Below are positions 1 to 4,612 of a DNA stretch of 4,612 nt, piece after piece. The DNA lies in IMG/VR virus record IMGVR_UViG_2660237951_000007, positions 1 through 4,612 of that record, one strand, 5' to 3'. Numbering within the stretch: position 1 is the stretch's first letter; the number at the start of each line of letters is the position of its first letter. The position numbers and the translations under genes were made by a program. The notes below the pieces were generated by a model. The model was not told the DNA's origin. It ran no database searches and worked only from the letters and a program-made list of their open reading frames with translations. The stretch comes from a virus (lineage: Duplodnaviria; Heunggongvirae; Uroviricota; Caudoviricetes).

Positions 1-182
1 GATTTGAGTTTGGGGTTTAGCGTGACAAGTTTGCGAGGGTGATCGGAGTAATCAGTGAACAGTTCGCCACCAACAATAACATCATAACCGTGGTTACGTG
101 TCGGTTGTCGCCCGTTATCCGTTCCTTCTGACCATGCCACCATATCCAGGAAAGCTTTACGCTGGGAATTTAGTGCCTGCAT
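1..182 (-). CDS. R: Endolysin, phage lambda R-type lytic transglycosylase; N-terminal 60 codons only, 3' end lies beyond the window start
   Basis: Absent from the supplied ORF track because it is truncated. Minus-strand translation from ATG at 182-180 reads MQALNSQRKAFLDMVAWSEGTDNGRQPTRNHGYDVIVGGELFTDYSDHPRKLVTLNPKLK, which matches the N-terminus of lambda R nearly residue for residue as I recall it, including the WSEGTD segment with the catalytic Glu. AGGAG (plus coords 189-193) sits 6 nt upstream of the ATG, inside the last codons of the preceding holin gene. Confidence 0.9.
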   Translation of the reverse strand, partial: MQALNSQRKAFLDMVAWSEGTDNGRQPTRNHGYDVIVGGELFTDYSDHPRKLVTLNPKLK

Positions 183-185
183 AAA

Positions 186-521
186 TTACTCCTTCGAGCT
201 ACCAAATTTGTTACCGATTACTCGCATTGCAGCCCCACGAATAGCATCGACACCGATCAGCCCCACGCCACCACCAATGGCAACAGAAAGCGATTTAGGC
301 CATCCGACATATTCAAGAGCGGATGCAAAGGTCAGCGTCAGAGCGCCACATAGCAAAATCTCGAGCGTTTTTCGCTTCCAGCCACCACCACCGCCAAAAT
401 AGGCGATGCGCAAACCAGCCATAACGATCGACATAATCACTGCACCCAGCGGTGTGTCTCCACGCCACCAGCTCTGAAACAACTCCAGCCAGTCCGGCCA
501 GGTATTTGGGTTATGAGGCAT
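186..521 (-). CDS. Class I holin, lambda S-like (about 111 aa from ATG at 521-519; the track ORF 186..617 is over-extended at its 5' end)
   Basis: Three hydrophobic segments (LGAVIMSIVMAGLRIAYF, TLEILLCGALTLTFASALEYVGW, SLSVAIGGGVGLIGVDAI) and a charged C-terminal tail. The N-terminus MPHNPN...MAGLRIAYFGGGG and the C-terminus GLIGVDAIRGAAMRVIGNK parallel lambda S (MPEKHD...AMAYLRGRYNGG and GYIGTDSIGSLIKRFAAKK, from memory). The stop TAA at 188-186 lies 3 nt before the R start, the classic S-R arrangement. The longer reading to 617 would overlap the methyltransferase stop codon and an intrinsic terminator, so the internal Met33 start is preferred. Confidence 0.75.
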   Translation of the reverse strand: MPHNPNTWPDWLELFQSWWRGDTPLGAVIMSIVMAGLRIAYFGGGGGWKRKTLEILLCGALTLTFASALEYVGWPKSLSVAIGGGVGLIGVDAIRGAAMRVIGNKFGSSKE

Positions 522-562
522 TTCGTCATCTCTCACCTCGCGATATTTGCGGGTGCTGTGTT

Positions 563-590
563 GGAAATAAAAAGGCCACGCAACGTGGCC
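563..590 (-). terminator. Rho-independent terminator directly downstream of the methyltransferase gene
   Basis: On the minus strand: GGCCACG-UUG-CGUGGCC (perfect 7-bp stem, plus coords 574-590) followed by UUUUUAUUUCC (plus 563-573). It begins 8 nt after the methyltransferase stop codon at 598-600. Confidence 0.6.
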
Positions 591-597
591 ACCAGAA

Positions 598-1650
598 TTA
601 TTTCCCCACCAGTTCACTTACCTCTTTCACCGTCTGATTAAACCGCTCTGACTCAAGTTCAACACCTAACGCCCGACGCCCCAGCGCCATTGCTGCTTTT
701 ATTGTGGAACCGGATCCCATAAAGAAATCAGCAACCAGATCACCAGGTCGACTACTGGCATTGATTATTTGCCGGAGCATATCCGCCGGTTTCTCGCACG
801 GATGTTTACCCGGGTAGAACTGAACGGGCTTATGCGTCCAGACATCGGTATAAGGCACGGAGACTGATACGGAGAAATAGCGCCGGAGAGATTTAAACTC
901 ATCCAGCAATTCAGAATATTTGCGATTCAGTGAATCATAAGATGCCACCAGCTGGTGGTGTGGTTGTTCCAGTTGTTGTTCCTGAAACTTCTCTGCCGCT
1001 ATACGGGAAAACAGTGCCTGTAACTTCCGATAGTCAGCCTCATTCGGCAACTGCCACTGACTGGCACCAAACCAGTGGGAAACCATATTTTTCTTACCTG
1101 TGGCTTCGGCAATTTGTTTTGCCGTTATACCCAGTTCGGCACGAGCATCCCTGAAATACGATATCAGCGGTGCCATTATGTGCTGTTTGAGTTCCCTTTC
1201 TTTTGCCGCATAGCCGTCACTTTTGCCGCGATATGGCCCCTGGTAATGTTCAGCAAACAGAACGCGCTCTGTGGCAGGAAAATATGCGCGCAGACTTTCT
1301 TTATTACACCCATTCCAACGTCCGGACGGCTTCGCCCAGATGATATGGTTAAGCACGTTGAAACGTTCACGCATCATGATCTCAATATCAGATGCCAGGC
1401 GATGCCCACAGAACAGGTAAAGGCTTCCGGCAGGTTTCAACACCCGCCAGAACTGGGCCAGACAGTGGTCCAGCCACTTAAGGTAATCTTCGTCCCCTTT
1501 CCACTGATTGTCCCAACCGTTAGGTTTCACCTTGAAGTAAGGCGGATCCGTAACAATAAGGTCGATGGTGTTATCTGGGAGGGTTGCGAGGTATTGCATG
1601 CAGTCAGCGTTGATAAGCTCAACACTGTTTATATTTACAGTATTTTTCAT
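598..1650 (-). CDS. DNA methyltransferase, beta-class N6-adenine/N4-cytosine family (DPPY motif; YhdJ-like), apparently orphan
   Basis: 350-aa ORF. Motif IV DPPY at residues 35-38 (plus coords 1537-1548) lies near the N-terminus and the AdoMet motif I FFMGSGST at residues 309-316 near the C-terminus; this IV-then-I order defines the beta group. N- and C-terminal blocks resemble E. coli YhdJ as I recall it (DLIVTDPPYF vs DLIFADPPYN; HPCEKPADMLRQIINASSRPGDLVADFFMGSGST vs [34 protein letters not shown]). No restriction endonuclease candidate is adjacent in the window. Confidence 0.88.
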   Translation of the reverse strand: MKNTVNINSVELINADCMQYLATLPDNTIDLIVTDPPYFKVKPNGWDNQWKGDEDYLKWLDHCLAQFWRVLKPAGSLYLFCGHRLASDIEIMMRERFNVLNHIIWAKPSGRWNGCNKESLRAYFPATERVLFAEHYQGPYRGKSDGYAAKERELKQHIMAPLISYFRDARAELGITAKQIAEATGKKNMVSHWFGASQWQLPNEADYRKLQALFSRIAAEKFQEQQLEQPHHQLVASYDSLNRKYSELLDEFKSLRRYFSVSVSVPYTDVWTHKPVQFYPGKHPCEKPADMLRQIINASSRPGDLVADFFMGSGSTIKAAMALGRRALGVELESERFNQTVKEVSELVGK

Positions 1651-1742
1651 AGATCCGTAAGCGTAACTCTGATAGGCTCACTATGCTTTTGCGCTAAAGC
1701 AGTGGGCCTTGGTTAGCTTGTGACCTGAAAGCATGAGCTAAT

Positions 1743-1773
1743 GGCTGGTTGGGTGCTACAACACCCACCAGCC
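1743..1773. repeat. Imperfect inverted repeat (12-bp arms, one bulged T, 6-nt spacer) in the intergenic region between the small ORF and the methyltransferase
   Basis: Plus strand GGCTGGTTGGGTG (1743-1755) ctacaa CACCCACCAGCC (1762-1773). The arms are reverse complements except for one extra T in the left arm. No U-tract follows on either strand, so it is not a canonical terminator. Confidence 0.55.
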
Positions 1774-1800
1774 GCCCATTTCCACAGCAGAATGCCCCCT

Positions 1801-1992
1801 TCAGTGGAGGCGTTTGTAACATCCAAACTGGTAATCTGATAACCCCGCCATAACCAGCTGCGTCAGGATGAGCTGGCATTTCTCTCGGCTTAGGTGCGTA
1901 TTCTGTGCAATTTCCCCAGCTGTCGCTGGTGAAGCGCTGAGTTCGTTAAAAACCGCTTTTGCTTCTTCTGTCATATAAGGTTGATTTTGCAT
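1801..1992 (-). CDS. Small (63 aa) winged-helix/HTH-like DNA-binding protein, family uncertain (PapI/FaeA-like pattern possible)
   Basis: ATG at 1992-1990 is preceded by AAGGGG (2005-2000) with a 7-nt spacer. The segment ATAGEIAQNTHLSREKCQLILTQLVMAGL has the helix-turn-recognition-helix spacing typical of small winged-helix regulators. The gene is co-oriented with and directly upstream of the methyltransferase gene. Confidence 0.55.
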   Translation of the reverse strand: MQNQPYMTEEAKAVFNELSASPATAGEIAQNTHLSREKCQLILTQLVMAGLSDYQFGCYKRLH

Positions 1993-2070
1993 GCCTTTTC
2001 CCCTTTTTTATCGTGTGACACACAGATAACTCTGGTTCATTTTTGCATCAAGCTTTAGATACAAAAGGCA

Positions 2071-2095
2071 TAAAAAAACCCCGCCGAGGCGAGGT
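2071..2095 (-). terminator. Promoter-proximal intrinsic terminator (tR'-like) between the Q-position gene and the cargo genes
   Basis: Minus-strand RNA CCUCGC-CUCG-GCGGGG (6-bp stem with one G-U pair and a tetraloop; plus coords 2079-2094) followed by seven U residues (plus 2072-2078). It lies about 30-55 nt downstream of the candidate promoter. Confidence 0.6.
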
Positions 2096-2103
2096 TAGAT
2101 ATA

Positions 2104-2160
2104 ATTATGACAAAATATAAAATTAGCTTCAAATATGGCTCATTTTGTTGCATTTTGCAA
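2104..2160 (-). promoter_or_regulatory. Candidate sigma70 late promoter (pR'-like) with downstream -10-like elements
   Basis: Minus-strand reading: TTGCAA (2160-2155), 17-nt spacer, CATATT (2137-2132). A second overlapping candidate is TTGAAG (2132-2127), 17-nt spacer, CATAAT (2109-2104). TATATT at 2119-2114 would fall at about +7 to +12 of the first promoter. The region is AT-rich and begins about 30 bp after the stop of the Q-position gene. Confidence 0.45.
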
Positions 2161-2190
2161 GCCCATTTGAGGGAGTTAGTGAAAGTTACC

Positions 2191-2883
2191 TCACATTTCC
2201 GCCACTTTCAGTTCTTGGTACTCTTCGTACCGTGACAAAATTTCGCTTAGTGCCTGGCTATCCATTTCAGCAAACGACGCTTTGAAAGCCGCCCAGTGGC
2301 CTGAATACACTCTGAGCCAGGTGGAACGCTCAACGCTGACCATGCGCGCCAGAGCTGCACCAGCATACTCCTGATAGGTATCGTTATTACGCGAGGCAGC
2401 AACTTCTTGCGCCGCCAGCCAGACAAGCCCTACCAGTTTTTTAGTGACGCGGCCCTGTATTTTTTTGCCGCTATGCTGACGCTGAAACTGTTCCCACACG
2501 TGCTGGCACATCAATGTCTGGTACCGGAAAGTAAGGTCATACCCATAGCAGTACCGCACCCATGCCTGCAAATGCTCACCCAGACCATTGACCGAACGAC
2601 GCCATGCTGAACAAGCGAACTCCGTATCTTTAATAGGCGGCAAAGGTCGACGACGGCTCCTTGTCTCAAGAACATAAAATGGAGTGGCCAGCGTTGTTAC
2701 AACCTTTGACCCACAACCTTCCCCACCCTCCATGACGATTTCAGGATGGTGCCGGGGGTATTTATTCTTATCTGCTGGTGGATGCTCACTGAACGCCTGC
2801 AGCTGTCCTTTTGTCGATCCTGATAAATCCGCCAGCGCGCGGCGCAGTTCAATCCGCGTATATTCCAGTTCTTGTAAATTCAT
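2191..2883 (-). CDS. Putative late-gene antiterminator at the Q position (non-lambda-Q family; assignment by synteny), 230 aa from ATG at 2883-2881
   Basis: An intact ORF directly downstream of a DUF968 gene and directly upstream of a promoter+terminator and lysis genes. This matches the ydfU-then-quuQ arrangement I recall for the E. coli K-12 Qin prophage. It shows no resemblance to lambda Q (no paired CxxC zinc-finger motifs). The track extends the ORF to a TTG at 2904; the ATG at 2883 has GGAG/GAG upstream and is preferred. Confidence 0.5.
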   Translation of the reverse strand: MNLQELEYTRIELRRALADLSGSTKGQLQAFSEHPPADKNKYPRHHPEIVMEGGEGCGSKVVTTLATPFYVLETRSRRRPLPPIKDTEFACSAWRRSVNGLGEHLQAWVRYCYGYDLTFRYQTLMCQHVWEQFQRQHSGKKIQGRVTKKLVGLVWLAAQEVAASRNNDTYQEYAGAALARMVSVERSTWLRVYSGHWAAFKASFAEMDSQALSEILSRYEEYQELKVAEM

Positions 2884-2904
2884 TATGCTCAGCGCTCCAT
2901 ACAA

Positions 2905-3966
2905 TTACGCTTTTGTTATTACGCCGATCGCCAGCGCTCGATTCATAAATCGGAATAGCAGCTCCAGCTGGGTACCGTGTTTTTTCTCGAACGCTGCAAC
3001 ATCAGCATGTAATTTGTCGTGACACTCTCTGCACAGAGGGATCACGAACAAATCGTGGGCTTTAGTGGCGGTACCGCCCATGCCGTGACCAATGACATGG
3101 TGTGGATCATCCGCTGGCCGCCGGCAACCTTCACAGGGCTGGGTTTTAGCCCACCGGGTATAGTCCTCATTCACCCACCTGCGGTGTTTTGGGCGCAACA
3201 TGAATGATTCAGGGGATTCAGGATCCGCATGCAGAGCCAGAACCTGTGGCTGGTCATAGGCCACTTCCTGATTTGTTCCATGCTTTAAATGCGCAGCCGT
3301 GACCGCAGGGGTGACCTTCTTCTGCAAAATGTTTTTTGTCGGTGGCATCGGCACAATGTCACTTTCGCGATATACGGATAAAAACGGCTCATCCGGTAAG
3401 CGAAGCGCATGCTGGGCCATCCTTTCCGTGATTGCATCAGCAATGCCTGAGTAAACGGCCCACCAGCACAATTCACCGAGGGATAGTTCACGCTCGTTGT
3501 TGTAGCCAAGCGAAGACAGGATAGAACTGATCAGCCAGTTAATGAGATTACGCCGGGCCAGTTCTGCCAGCGCCGCGGTGGTTTGCTCGCGCAGCTGGTT
3601 ATCGCAATGCCAACAGAGCAACATTGATCCAGGGGGATGTCGCATCGTTACCAGCTCATGATGGTGATAATTAGTGTGCGGGTACTGGCATTCCTTCACG
3701 TTACGCTCTAGCCAGGATTCCAACCCGGACAAACCGCCTGCTGCACGGATAACTCTCTCGTCGGTGAAGAATTCCTCGAGGGACTTATCTTCTGCCAGCG
3801 GCTGCCGGGCATCAGGGACGAGCCCCGACGGAAGCCCAGCCATGCTTTTTGGCTGAGGCTCCACCAGCACACGCCCCTGTTGAAACAAAGACATCAGTTC
3901 GCTACCCGGCTTTAACAGCACAAGCCCAAGGCGCGGAACAGTCTCGGCTGTAAACAGTCCTCTCAC
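2905..3966 (-). CDS. DUF968-family prophage protein with C-terminal HNH-like Cys/His motif (YdfU-like)
   Basis: 353-aa ORF. The C-terminal CEGCRRPADDPHHVIGHG...VIPLCRECHDKLH matches a CxxC...HH...CxxCH zinc/HNH-type motif. The GTG start at 3966-3964 overlaps the TGA of the upstream gene (GTGA) and is preceded by AAGGGG (3980-3975) with an 8-nt spacer. Family recall is from memory of lambdoid nin-region proteins. Confidence 0.75.
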   Translation of the reverse strand: MRGLFTAETVPRLGLVLLKPGSELMSLFQQGRVLVEPQPKSMAGLPSGLVPDARQPLAEDKSLEEFFTDERVIRAAGGLSGLESWLERNVKECQYPHTNYHHHELVTMRHPPGSMLLCWHCDNQLREQTTAALAELARRNLINWLISSILSSLGYNNERELSLGELCWWAVYSGIADAITERMAQHALRLPDEPFLSVYRESDIVPMPPTKNILQKKVTPAVTAAHLKHGTNQEVAYDQPQVLALHADPESPESFMLRPKHRRWVNEDYTRWAKTQPCEGCRRPADDPHHVIGHGMGGTATKAHDLFVIPLCRECHDKLHADVAAFEKKHGTQLELLFRFMNRALAIGVITKA

Positions 3967-4612
3967 GCGGCATGCCCCTTAGCGATGTGTGCCGTCCACA
4001 GGCCGCCGATCCACTCGATGCCTTTGGGTGTAAAACGTGCCTGGCTAAAGGCGTAGTTTGTTTCGCTCGTAGTGCCAGTTTTCACTTCAAACCGCCCGGC
4101 AGCAATGTGCTGGTGCCGAGGTGTCAGCACTCCACTGAGCCGGTACAAAATGCCGCTCTCAATGAGGAACAAGCGGAAATCGGTCTCTTTGGCCTGCAAC
4201 AGCTTTGCCACCTGGCGGAAAGACATTGAGCCTTTGGCAGTACAATATCGATCGACAAACTCAACTTTCGGCGCGGCAGCGGCTAACTGCTGGCTGAGTT
4301 GTTCTTTCTGCTCGGCCAGATCCGCGGCGAGACGTAATGCCTCCGGCAATGTTTGCGGGACACTTACGGCCTGGCTGTTCTCCAGCTCTTGCCAGCGATC
4401 GACAACAGCGGCGGTAAATTCTGGCGACAGCCTGGCGACGATCACCAGAGAATCACGTTTGTTAAACCAATACTCCTCGTAGGTTTGCCCGTTTTGCGGG
4501 TGTGTGTAGGGGGTGTGCGCCAACGGCGCGGTTAAAATACCAGCAGATGCAAGGCGCTCAGCTGAGCGCTTCACATCACCATGTTTGCTCTGCACCAGCC
4601 TGGCAATTTCAC
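3963..4612 (-). CDS. Rha-family phage regulatory protein with C-terminal KilA-C/ANT (antirepressor-like) domain; 5' end beyond the window
   Basis: The N-terminal part (EIARLVQSKHGDVKRSAERL ... TYEEYWFNKRDSLVIVARLSPEFTAAVVDRWQELE) follows the Rha pattern. The C-terminal part (FRQVAKLLQAKETDFRLFLIESGILYR...GRFEVKTG...FTPKGIEWIGGLW) follows the KilA-C/ANT pattern. The reading frame stays open upstream of the track's GTG at 4595 to the window edge, so the true start is outside the window. Confidence 0.8.
   Translation of the reverse strand, partial: EIARLVQSKHGDVKRSAERLASAGILTAPLAHTPYTHPQNGQTYEEYWFNKRDSLVIVARLSPEFTAAVVDRWQELENSQAVSVPQTLPEALRLAADLAEQKEQLSQQLAAAAPKVEFVDRYCTAKGSMSFRQVAKLLQAKETDFRLFLIESGILYRLSGVLTPRHQHIAAGRFEVKTGTTSETNYAFSQARFTPKGIEWIGGLWTAHIAKGHAA

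Follow-up and report, generated by a model that had tools for sequence, protein, structure and literature searches.

The DNA analysed here is a stretch of 4,612 nucleotides (nt) from a virus of the Caudoviricetes (positions 1 to 4,612 of IMG/VR record IMGVR_UViG_2660237951_000007; the whole stretch is called the window below), and its minus strand carries all of its genes. It corresponds to an entire contig of assembly GCA_001484085.1. The region studied is late-operon cargo of a lambdoid prophage, with Q and the late promoter and terminator on one side and the lysis genes on the other. It comprises a small open reading frame (ORF) for a winged-helix-like protein of 63 amino acids (aa), a structured leader RNA and a gene whose product, judged by its sequence, belongs to the M.EcoGII-type non-specific N6-adenine methyltransferases. 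We consider it probable that this enzyme is silent in the lysogen, is expressed late in dependence on the antiterminator Q and protects broadly against restriction, with the leader serving as a second, translational layer of control. The anatomy, the family assignment, the synteny and the conservation and covariation of the leader come from this analysis, and the non-specific activity, lysogen silence and toxicity from the M.EcoGII literature.

An original prediction made from the letters of this DNA had proposed a cargo between the late promoter/terminator and the lysis cassette, and ORF calls, Pfam searches and a signal scan located the following features at or near the predicted positions.

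2191..2883, minus strand: late antiterminator Q gene, 230 aa as called (longest ORF 2904..2191; PF06323 Phage_antiter_Q, 4.6e-41; gene call in L086)
198 nt, minus strand: intergenic stretch from Q to the 63-aa ORF
2104..2132, minus strand: promoter-like site TTGAAG-17-CATAAT with an upstream TG, candidate pR' (consensus scan; assigned by position only)
2071..2096, minus strand: intrinsic terminator, tR'-like, AACCTCGCC-TCGG-CGGGGTT followed by seven T (hairpin 2096..2077; scan)
1801..1992, minus strand: gene of the small winged-helix protein, 63 aa (ORF; phrog_331, 2.6e-29)
1800..1651, minus strand: gap of 150 nt between the small ORF and the methyltransferase gene
598..1650, minus strand: gene of a beta-class N6-adenine DNA methyltransferase, assigned to the M.EcoGII family, 350 aa (PF01555 N6_N4_Mtase, 1.3e-42)
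76 nt, minus strand: spacer between the methyltransferase and holin genes
565..590, minus strand: strong intrinsic terminator GGCCACG-TTG-CGTGGCC followed by TTTTTATTT, in the methyltransferase/holin interval (hairpin 590..574; scan; annotated as a terminator in SfV)
186..521, minus strand: lambda-type holin S, 111 aa, with which the lysis cassette begins (PF05106, 5.9e-27; gene call)
182, minus strand: start of the endolysin gene

The methyltransferase and its late-operon slot

The methyltransferase shows the motif order of the beta class, with DPPY at residues 35-38 (codons 1548-1537) ahead of FMGSG at residues 310-314 (codons 723-709), and the PF01555 match covers residues 29-341, in agreement with the predicted beta-class DPPY adenine methyltransferase. 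An alignment with M.EcoGII, taken from Table S1 of PMC11551740 in a machine-read form that may hold a few errors, runs over the full length with two gaps and 279 of 349 residues identical (80%), no domain being gained or lost. Because of this full-length identity, we regard the enzyme as a member of a characterised non-specific family and not as a new orphan; as the layout had moreover been annotated in SfV, novelty was overrated in the original prediction. The differences from M.EcoGII (about 20% of residues) lie mostly in the central region, and relatives with solved structures align at the two conserved ends only. The homologues in SfV and mEp460 are 96% identical to the window enzyme. In a PADLOC search for defence systems, the methyltransferase alone was matched, by generic MTase_II models only (2.5e-150).

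M.EcoGII and its paralogue M.EcoGI (95% identity) are encoded by prophages of E. coli O104:H4 C227-11 and methylate adenines irrespective of sequence context (Murray et al. 2018, PMC5778455). Both are silent during normal growth in the lysogen and harmful to the cell when expressed (PMC5778455; review PMC12707154), and it has been proposed that they are switched on at induction to defeat restriction (PMC5778455, repeated in PMC12707154). Moreover, reconstructed ancestors of the M.EcoGII family are still non-site-specific (PMC11551740). The window enzyme shares with M.EcoGII and M.EcoGI its beta-class DPPY...FxGxG architecture, a length of 349-350 residues, the prophage location and the lack of a restriction partner; activity, lysogen silence and toxicity are known for M.EcoGII and are attributed to the window enzyme by homology. 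The portions of the published M.EcoGII/M.EcoGI work that were available hold no description of a place in the late operon, a leader or a small upstream partner.

The original prediction had seen no restriction partner, and the wider context bears this out. A 20.3-kb metagenome contig that encodes an identical methyltransferase reveals the remaining prophage: a CI-like repressor, Cro, a CII-like protein, replication genes, a Dam-family methyltransferase and a 645-aa C5 methyltransferase, followed by Ant, DUF968, Q, the 63-aa ORF, the methyltransferase, holin, endolysin and Rz. The contig holds phage regulatory, replication, methyltransferase and lysis genes only, and no restriction endonuclease was found on it. 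In the window, the neighbours of the methyltransferase gene are the winged-helix ORF and the holin gene, and not the adjacent cognate endonuclease of a Type II restriction-modification system. Its Dam-family protein (444 aa, PF05869) and its C5 enzyme (645 aa, PF00145) lie in the early region of this contig (L085, 3717-6981), so that one prophage type carries three orphan methyltransferases; the same early pair is also present in phage Eeyore.

The slot itself is conserved. We compiled 80 species-level loci, each from a different species, with methyltransferase identities from 92% down to 61%; in these, a Q gene precedes the cargo and a holin gene follows it, with three Pfam families represented among the Q proteins and several families among the holins. 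Similar DNA is present in 3178 of 5426 complete E. coli genomes and in 144 phage records. The slot is well known to be shared with Shiga toxin genes (PMC4104026, PMC6266700), as the original prediction had pointed out. In an Stx2c phage (L084), Q (PF03589) is followed by an ORF of 141 aa, then by a small-ORF homologue, the same leader and the methyltransferase, and last by two tRNA genes with stx2c A and B after them. In SfV (orf47-orf48 region, NC_003444), Q, a terminator, a small ORF, a gap of about 150 nt, the methyltransferase, a terminator and the holin follow one another as in the window, and both terminators are annotated. The phage mEp460 has the same gene order, and the cdtI phage groups with the SfV-type relatives; in SfV-type records, the small ORF is labelled "hypothetical" and the gap is unannotated. 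The Q family differs, being PF06323 in the window and the lambda-type PF03589 in the Stx2c phage and SfV (the PF03589 match itself comes from the Stx2c phage; in SfV, the Q region is not similar to that of the window).

Cargo of lambdoid phages at this insertion site, between Q/pR' and the lysis genes, includes stx and the anti-sRNAs AgvB and AsxR (PMC4104026, where the moron concept is cited). Classical morons have their own promoter and terminator and are expressed from the prophage. The window cargo has its terminator at 590-565, but a scan for sigma-70 consensus sites detected no sigma-70-like promoter on the minus strand from 2070 to 1651; this includes the gap at 1651..1800, where the original prediction had found none either. 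Furthermore, its homologue M.EcoGII is silent in lysogens. Such silence would fit the terminators found upstream here and the failure to find a promoter-like site. Terminator-like sites number 10 in the window against 5.2 expected, and the two best ones on the minus strand flank the cassette. Promoter-like sites number 3, with 4.2 expected from shuffles; because they are not commoner than in shuffles, the late-promoter call rests on position and not on statistics. As an alternative to the site at 2132..2104, TTGCAA (2160-2155) and CATATT (2137-2132), with a spacing of 17, were noted by eye.

Comparison with relatives further revealed a mosaic structure. The Q module is 96% identical to Eeyore and to several Enterobacter/Buttiauxella prophages down to 2074-2069, the end of the T run of the first terminator. 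Beyond this point, the phages that share the module lose similarity to the window, regain it at 1782-1789 and keep it down to about 530. With SfV, identity is 93% over 2036 to 1, and upstream of this the two are unrelated. On this comparison, the region is built of four exchangeable pieces, namely Q with promoter and terminator; the small ORF; the leader with methyltransferase and terminator; and the lysis genes. In the window, the Q module is Eeyore-like, and the cargo and lysis module joined to it resembles that of SfV. Because of the joints at 2069-2074 and 1782-1789 (about 1786), the "two-gene cassette" of the original prediction is better described as a pair of neighbouring modules that are usually inherited jointly. 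The original prediction saw a cassette-like boundary in the terminator that follows the methyltransferase, but the pair is not indivisible, since about a quarter of the loci, and Eeyore, keep leader and methyltransferase without the small ORF.

Two further genes lie upstream of Q in the window.

4595-3963, minus strand: Ant/KilAC antirepressor (domain and gene calls)
3966-2905, minus strand: DUF968 protein, 353 aa (weak HNH-nuclease match, HNHc_6, E 0.0034, below the cut-off)

The DUF968 gene overlaps the end of the Ant gene by 4 nt and abuts the Q gene, and its homologues are labelled "HNH endonuclease" in the SfV, mEp460 and Eeyore records. In Xenorhabdus loci (L052, L054, L057, L058, L062, L063 and others), the next gene, about 150-210 nt after the methyltransferase stop codon, codes for a protein of 250 aa whose domain (PF11195, 4.3e-12) is Tad2-like (Thoeris anti-defence 2), which suggests that the slot gathers anti-defence genes. 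Four loci (L011, L019, L028 and L048) are about 80% identical to enterobacterial prophages despite titles naming a Geobacteraceae metagenome-assembled genome, Vagococcus, Chryseobacterium and Collinsella; contamination or mis-binning of these assemblies is likely.

A structured leader RNA before the methyltransferase gene

The gap between the small ORF and the methyltransferase gene is no empty spacer: it turned out to hold a structured RNA that is conserved and makes up the 5' leader of the mRNA for the enzyme. The original prediction had missed this leader, as it had the stop-codon hairpin and the linkage of the small ORF to the methyltransferase. Its elements, together with a hairpin at its upstream side, are as follows.

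1651..1787, minus strand: conserved structured leader, 137 nt (covariance model R1, 173.6 bits in the window)
1733..1779, minus strand: helix P1, made of P1a AUGGG:CUCAU, P1b GGCUG:CAGCC and P1c GGGUG:CACCC (98-100% of cells paired; 4 pairs with two-sided changes)
1713..1741, minus strand: helix P2, UUAGCU..UG : CA..AGCUAA (shares bases with P1a, 3' strand, and with P4, 5' strand)
1675..1708, minus strand: hairpin P3, GGC-CACU-GCUUU ... AAAGC-AGUG-GCC (94% of cells paired; 2 pairs with two-sided changes)
1716..1725, minus strand: 5' strand of the long-range helix P4, GGUCA-CA-AGC, mimicking GAUCA of the 16S rRNA 3' end (pairs with 1663-1652)
1652..1663, minus strand: 3' strand of P4, CGCUU-AC-GGAUC, which stops one base short of the AUG at 1650 (pairs with 1725-1716)
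1794..1811, minus strand: hairpin GCCTCC-ACTGAA-GGGGGC with the small-ORF stop codon (1803-1801) in its loop (comparison with relatives)

The leader is 93-98% identical where the coding sequence of the methyltransferase is only 73-78% identical at the nucleotide level, and it is still recognisable in Morganella and Proteus. Model R1, built from 37 leaders, scored 102-174 bits in 54 loci, in each case directly 5' of the methyltransferase gene and with constant orientation and distance to the AUG. The other matches in the 717 kb searched were one 27-bit partial copy and weak ones to shorter Photorhabdus leaders. The partial copy (26.7 bits; L008, 3026-3111) is a second leader segment in a Trabulsiella prophage, about 900 nt upstream of the true leader. 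The window leader has a folding energy of -54.8 kcal/mol and a z-score of -3.4 relative to shuffles. Rfam 15 gave no covariance match on the minus strand of 1651-1800 at E<=1; the sole match there was P26 on the plus strand, with 20 bits against a gathering score of 36. No tRNA or tmRNA was found in the gap, and the Rfam search showed no match to the phage anti-sRNAs AgvB and AsxR, which sit downstream and not upstream of cargo genes (PMC4104026). The leader is apparently undescribed, and we regard it as a modest new lead.

RNAalifold on a first alignment returned P1 and P3 only; P2 and P4 emerged from inspection and single-sequence folding and were then counted in alignment A7, which was fitted to a model with P1 and P3 and without P2 or P4. 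Since the model used for the alignment did not contain P2, the evidence for this helix does not depend on the fitting. With P4 in the fold, 96.1% of cells are paired, where slid controls reach 31-44%, and nine pairs show two-sided changes; none of 500 shuffles reached the observed values; P4 itself has 93.9% of cells paired and three pairs with two-sided changes. With P2 in its place, 94.7% of cells are paired, again with nine two-sided pairs. In P2, pair 52:76 occurs as CG (24), AU (11), UA (7) and UG (4), and pair 55:73 as UA (41) and CG (7). In Proteus locus L071, the P1 stem is wholly rewritten and still complementary. Moreover, partition-function folding pairs -8 to +3 with -77 to -71 (the conserved G(G/A)UCA) in about 24 of 31 diverse leaders.

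P2 and P4 are mutually exclusive because P2 shares bases with the 5' strand of P4. An almost invariant GAUC at -5 to -2 of the methyltransferase AUG (1652-1655) is complementary to GAUCA near the 3' end of 16S rRNA, and the leader segment G(G/A)UCAC (1720-1725), which pairs with this GAUC, mimics the 16S rRNA sequence. In DNA, the GAUC before the AUG is also a Dam site. We infer that the almost invariant GAUC is a weak ribosome-binding sequence and that the leader alternates between a closed default state (P1 and P4) and an open state (P2). Tentatively, and with less confidence than we place in the cargo reading as a whole, the leader may represent an undescribed class of cis-regulatory RNA that gates translation of a toxic non-specific methyltransferase by a two-fold switch; its trigger may be the winged-helix protein or, alternatively, the arrival of ribosomes at the end of the small ORF, in the hairpin over its stop codon.

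This stop-codon hairpin occurs at the same offset in most relatives, and Xenorhabdus and Photorhabdus have the same hairpin with a different stem sequence. It is followed by 5-8 T in many relatives (8 in L010, L015, L017 and L027) and by 4 T in the window. It could serve as an additional terminator or else link the leader to what happens where the small ORF ends.

Within P1a, a mini-ORF on the minus strand begins with an AUG (1777-1754, MGGWWVL-stop). In the aligned leaders read by eye, one-base indels in the P1 loop extend it in relatives to about 33 codons or shift its frame to a UGA overlapping the methyltransferase AUG. By this reading, no peptide is conserved among the aligned leaders, and we discarded a leader-peptide attenuator.

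The small winged-helix protein

The 63-aa ORF is a real coding sequence, since variability among 16 relatives concentrates at third codon positions (32, 28 and 58 variable sites at codon positions 1, 2 and 3, each of 63). An AlphaFold model based on 33 relatives (pLDDT 89) has helices at 9-17, 25-32 and 36-48 and strands at 52-55 and 58-61. This helix-helix-helix-strand-strand order is a winged-helix topology, as had been guessed for this protein from its sequence. Helix 3, CQL(I/L)LTQ..LAGL, is its best-conserved part. Its Pfam matches are below threshold (DprA_WH, 22.3 bits with a cut-off of 22.9; TrmB, 19.9 with 25.6), NCBI labels its relatives "TrmB family" or "DprA-like wH" (winged helix), and phrog_331, the PHROG to which it belongs, has no assigned function. 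Foldseek returned generic winged-helix domains only (TM 0.65-0.81, E about 1e-3), among them O-methyltransferase dimerisation domains, IclR/MarR regulators, IdeR and an RNA-binding SelB domain (2pjp). No sequence-related solved structure was found.

A homologue of the small ORF lies directly upstream of the methyltransferase in 62 of the approximately 80 species-level loci, from Escherichia to Xenorhabdus, at a distance from ORF end to methyltransferase AUG of about 150 nt in Enterobacteriaceae and 76-100 nt in Xenorhabdus/Photorhabdus. Among 76 viral contigs with the small ORF, the methyltransferase starts within 400 nt in 73 and within about 650 nt in the other three. This linkage to the methyltransferase appears undescribed. 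The reverse linkage fails, as about a quarter of the loci keep leader and methyltransferase without the small ORF. In the complete phage Eeyore, a six-frame profile search (E<=10) found no small-ORF homologue anywhere, which for this phage rules out relocation of the ORF to another place in the genome.

Could the small protein be a dedicated activator of methyltransferase translation? In phage Mu, Com activates mom translation. A Com-like protein would bind the leader at GUGAAAUGGGCGG/P1 and disfavour P1a, so that P2 forms and the ribosome-binding region held by P4 opens. The methyltransferase always follows the small ORF in the viral contigs, the linkage extends from Escherichia to Xenorhabdus, helix 3 is the most conserved part of the protein, an RNA-hairpin-binding winged helix (SelB, 2pjp) is among the Foldseek matches, and the leader has two exclusive folds. 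The resemblance to com-mom is also one of layout: both systems have a gene for a protein of about 62-63 aa directly upstream of an adenine-modification gene, and toxicity and silence in lysogens are common to the adenine modifiers Mu mom and M.EcoGII (PMC12707154). RNA structure also hides the start region of the modification gene in Mu and, by prediction and comparison among relatives, through P4 in the window. However, Com is a zinc-finger protein and the window protein a winged helix; the small protein has no similarity to Com, its only Pfam matches being the two sub-threshold winged-helix families, and its Foldseek matches are generic. Mom is not an S-adenosylmethionine-dependent methyltransferase of this class, and the proteins of the two systems are unrelated. 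Furthermore, the window leader is larger, with four helices, and the loci that lack the small ORF, including Eeyore, show that the small protein is dispensable. We therefore consider a Com-like role, attractive for its geometry, unlikely, if still the best of the alternatives.

A role on DNA, as a transcription factor or as a reader or shield of N6-methyladenine (m6A)-rich DNA against m6A-dependent Type IV nucleases, seems to us somewhat more doubtful. The best structural matches include DNA-binding winged helices of the IclR, MarR and IdeR type, and the small-protein gene is tightly linked to the methyltransferase. Prokaryotic winged-helix domains can sense m6A, and M.EcoGII-modified DNA is a substrate of Type IV enzymes with winged-helix fusions (PMC11037411); because such enzymes cut it, an m6A shield would have a clear benefit. 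Against this stand the absence of a DpnI-like winged helix among the 50 best Foldseek matches and the lack of any function assigned by PADLOC or PHROG, and the proposal is pure inference. As a sequence-specific operator of the small protein, the P1 stem was rejected: the proteins of Proteus loci L070 and L071 differ at two residues, and their stems at many compensated positions.

Proposed late expression of a probably non-specific methyltransferase

It is quite improbable that the enzyme is instead a sequence-specific orphan methyltransferase of the Dam or CcrM kind, which regulates phage or host expression or packaging and gives no blanket protection. Consistent with such a role, its central region (115-280) differs from M.EcoGII at about a quarter of positions, two further methyltransferases in the early region of the same prophage type may divide roles with it, and there is weak NCBIfam similarity to the PRK11524 adenine methyltransferase and to CcrM. 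These NCBIfam matches fall far under their cut-offs (108 versus 292 bits and 67 versus 830 bits), M.EcoGI, M.EcoGII and the family-spanning reconstructed ancestors are all non-specific (PMC5778455, PMC11551740), and the 80% identity extends over the full length with domains neither gained nor lost. A little less credible still is that the leader is conserved only as DNA, as a recombination linker between modules or a protein-binding site without RNA function: a mosaic joint lies exactly at its 5' edge (1782-1789), but its four helices show compensatory double changes with a stem sequence free to vary, it folds more stably than shuffles, its orientation and distance to the AUG are always the same, and a linker would have no need to keep base pairing. 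In favour of such a linker, lambdoid phages reportedly swap modules at conserved boundary sequences (Juhala; Hendrix).

We thus favour a late-operon cargo with a non-specific, Q-dependent methyltransferase, in which the Q dependence, the timing, the anti-restriction benefit, the leader switching and any role of the winged-helix protein would be as follows. In the lysogen, transcripts from the late promoter would stop at the terminator at 2096-2071, in many relatives with a second stop at the hairpin over the small-ORF stop codon, and the enzyme would not be made. Upon induction, Q-modified RNA polymerase would pass the first terminator, the stop-codon hairpin and the terminator at 590-565, and the methyltransferase would then be made alongside the lysis and morphogenesis genes. 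Adenines of replicating phage DNA would be methylated in almost any context before packaging, and the packaged genomes would thereby be protected against many Type I, II and III restriction systems of the next host. In the leader, P4 is predicted to pair the sequence immediately 5' of the AUG, and the alternative P2 hairpin would free it; the default state would thereby hold translation of the toxic enzyme low, and the winged-helix protein may have a part in the switch. Silence in the lysogen, late expression and the anti-restriction logic match the published account of M.EcoGII (PMC5778455, PMC12707154), which makes this our best reading. Our literature search turned up no direct evidence of hypermethylated virion DNA in such phages.

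Several points weigh against this account. The promoter is assigned by position, with no enrichment of such sites. The T tail of the stop-codon hairpin is weak in the window (4 T of 9), and because of this the hairpin may not terminate there. At 80% identity, the target-recognition region could in principle have acquired some specificity. For the leader, P1 and P3 were part of the model to which alignment A7 was fitted, P1a shows one-sided changes only, the covariation of P4 comes mainly from the Morganella/Proteus group and perhaps from few independent events, and P1a and a shortened P2 could coexist as a pseudoknot, so that the two-state reading is not proven. Finally, Eeyore has the leader and the methyltransferase but no small-ORF homologue, and the winged-helix protein is therefore not required for the usefulness of the enzyme.

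The gene family, its likely purpose and the gene order are already in the literature or in annotated records, SfV among them. The cargo adds one more copy of a prophage gene that is widespread and whose homologue, M.EcoGII, is already sold as a reagent, in a slot known for accessory genes; to a specialist, only the leader and the tie between the small ORF and the methyltransferase might be new. What the comparison adds for the M.EcoGII family is its placement in a Q-controlled late operon behind one to two terminators, and because the genes sit there, their silence in lysogens would be explained. Moreover, the leader and the winged-helix neighbour, conserved across Enterobacterales, suggest a dedicated control device for a dangerous enzyme. 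Such a device could account for the ability of phages to carry a methyltransferase from which the host cell would otherwise suffer before lysis.

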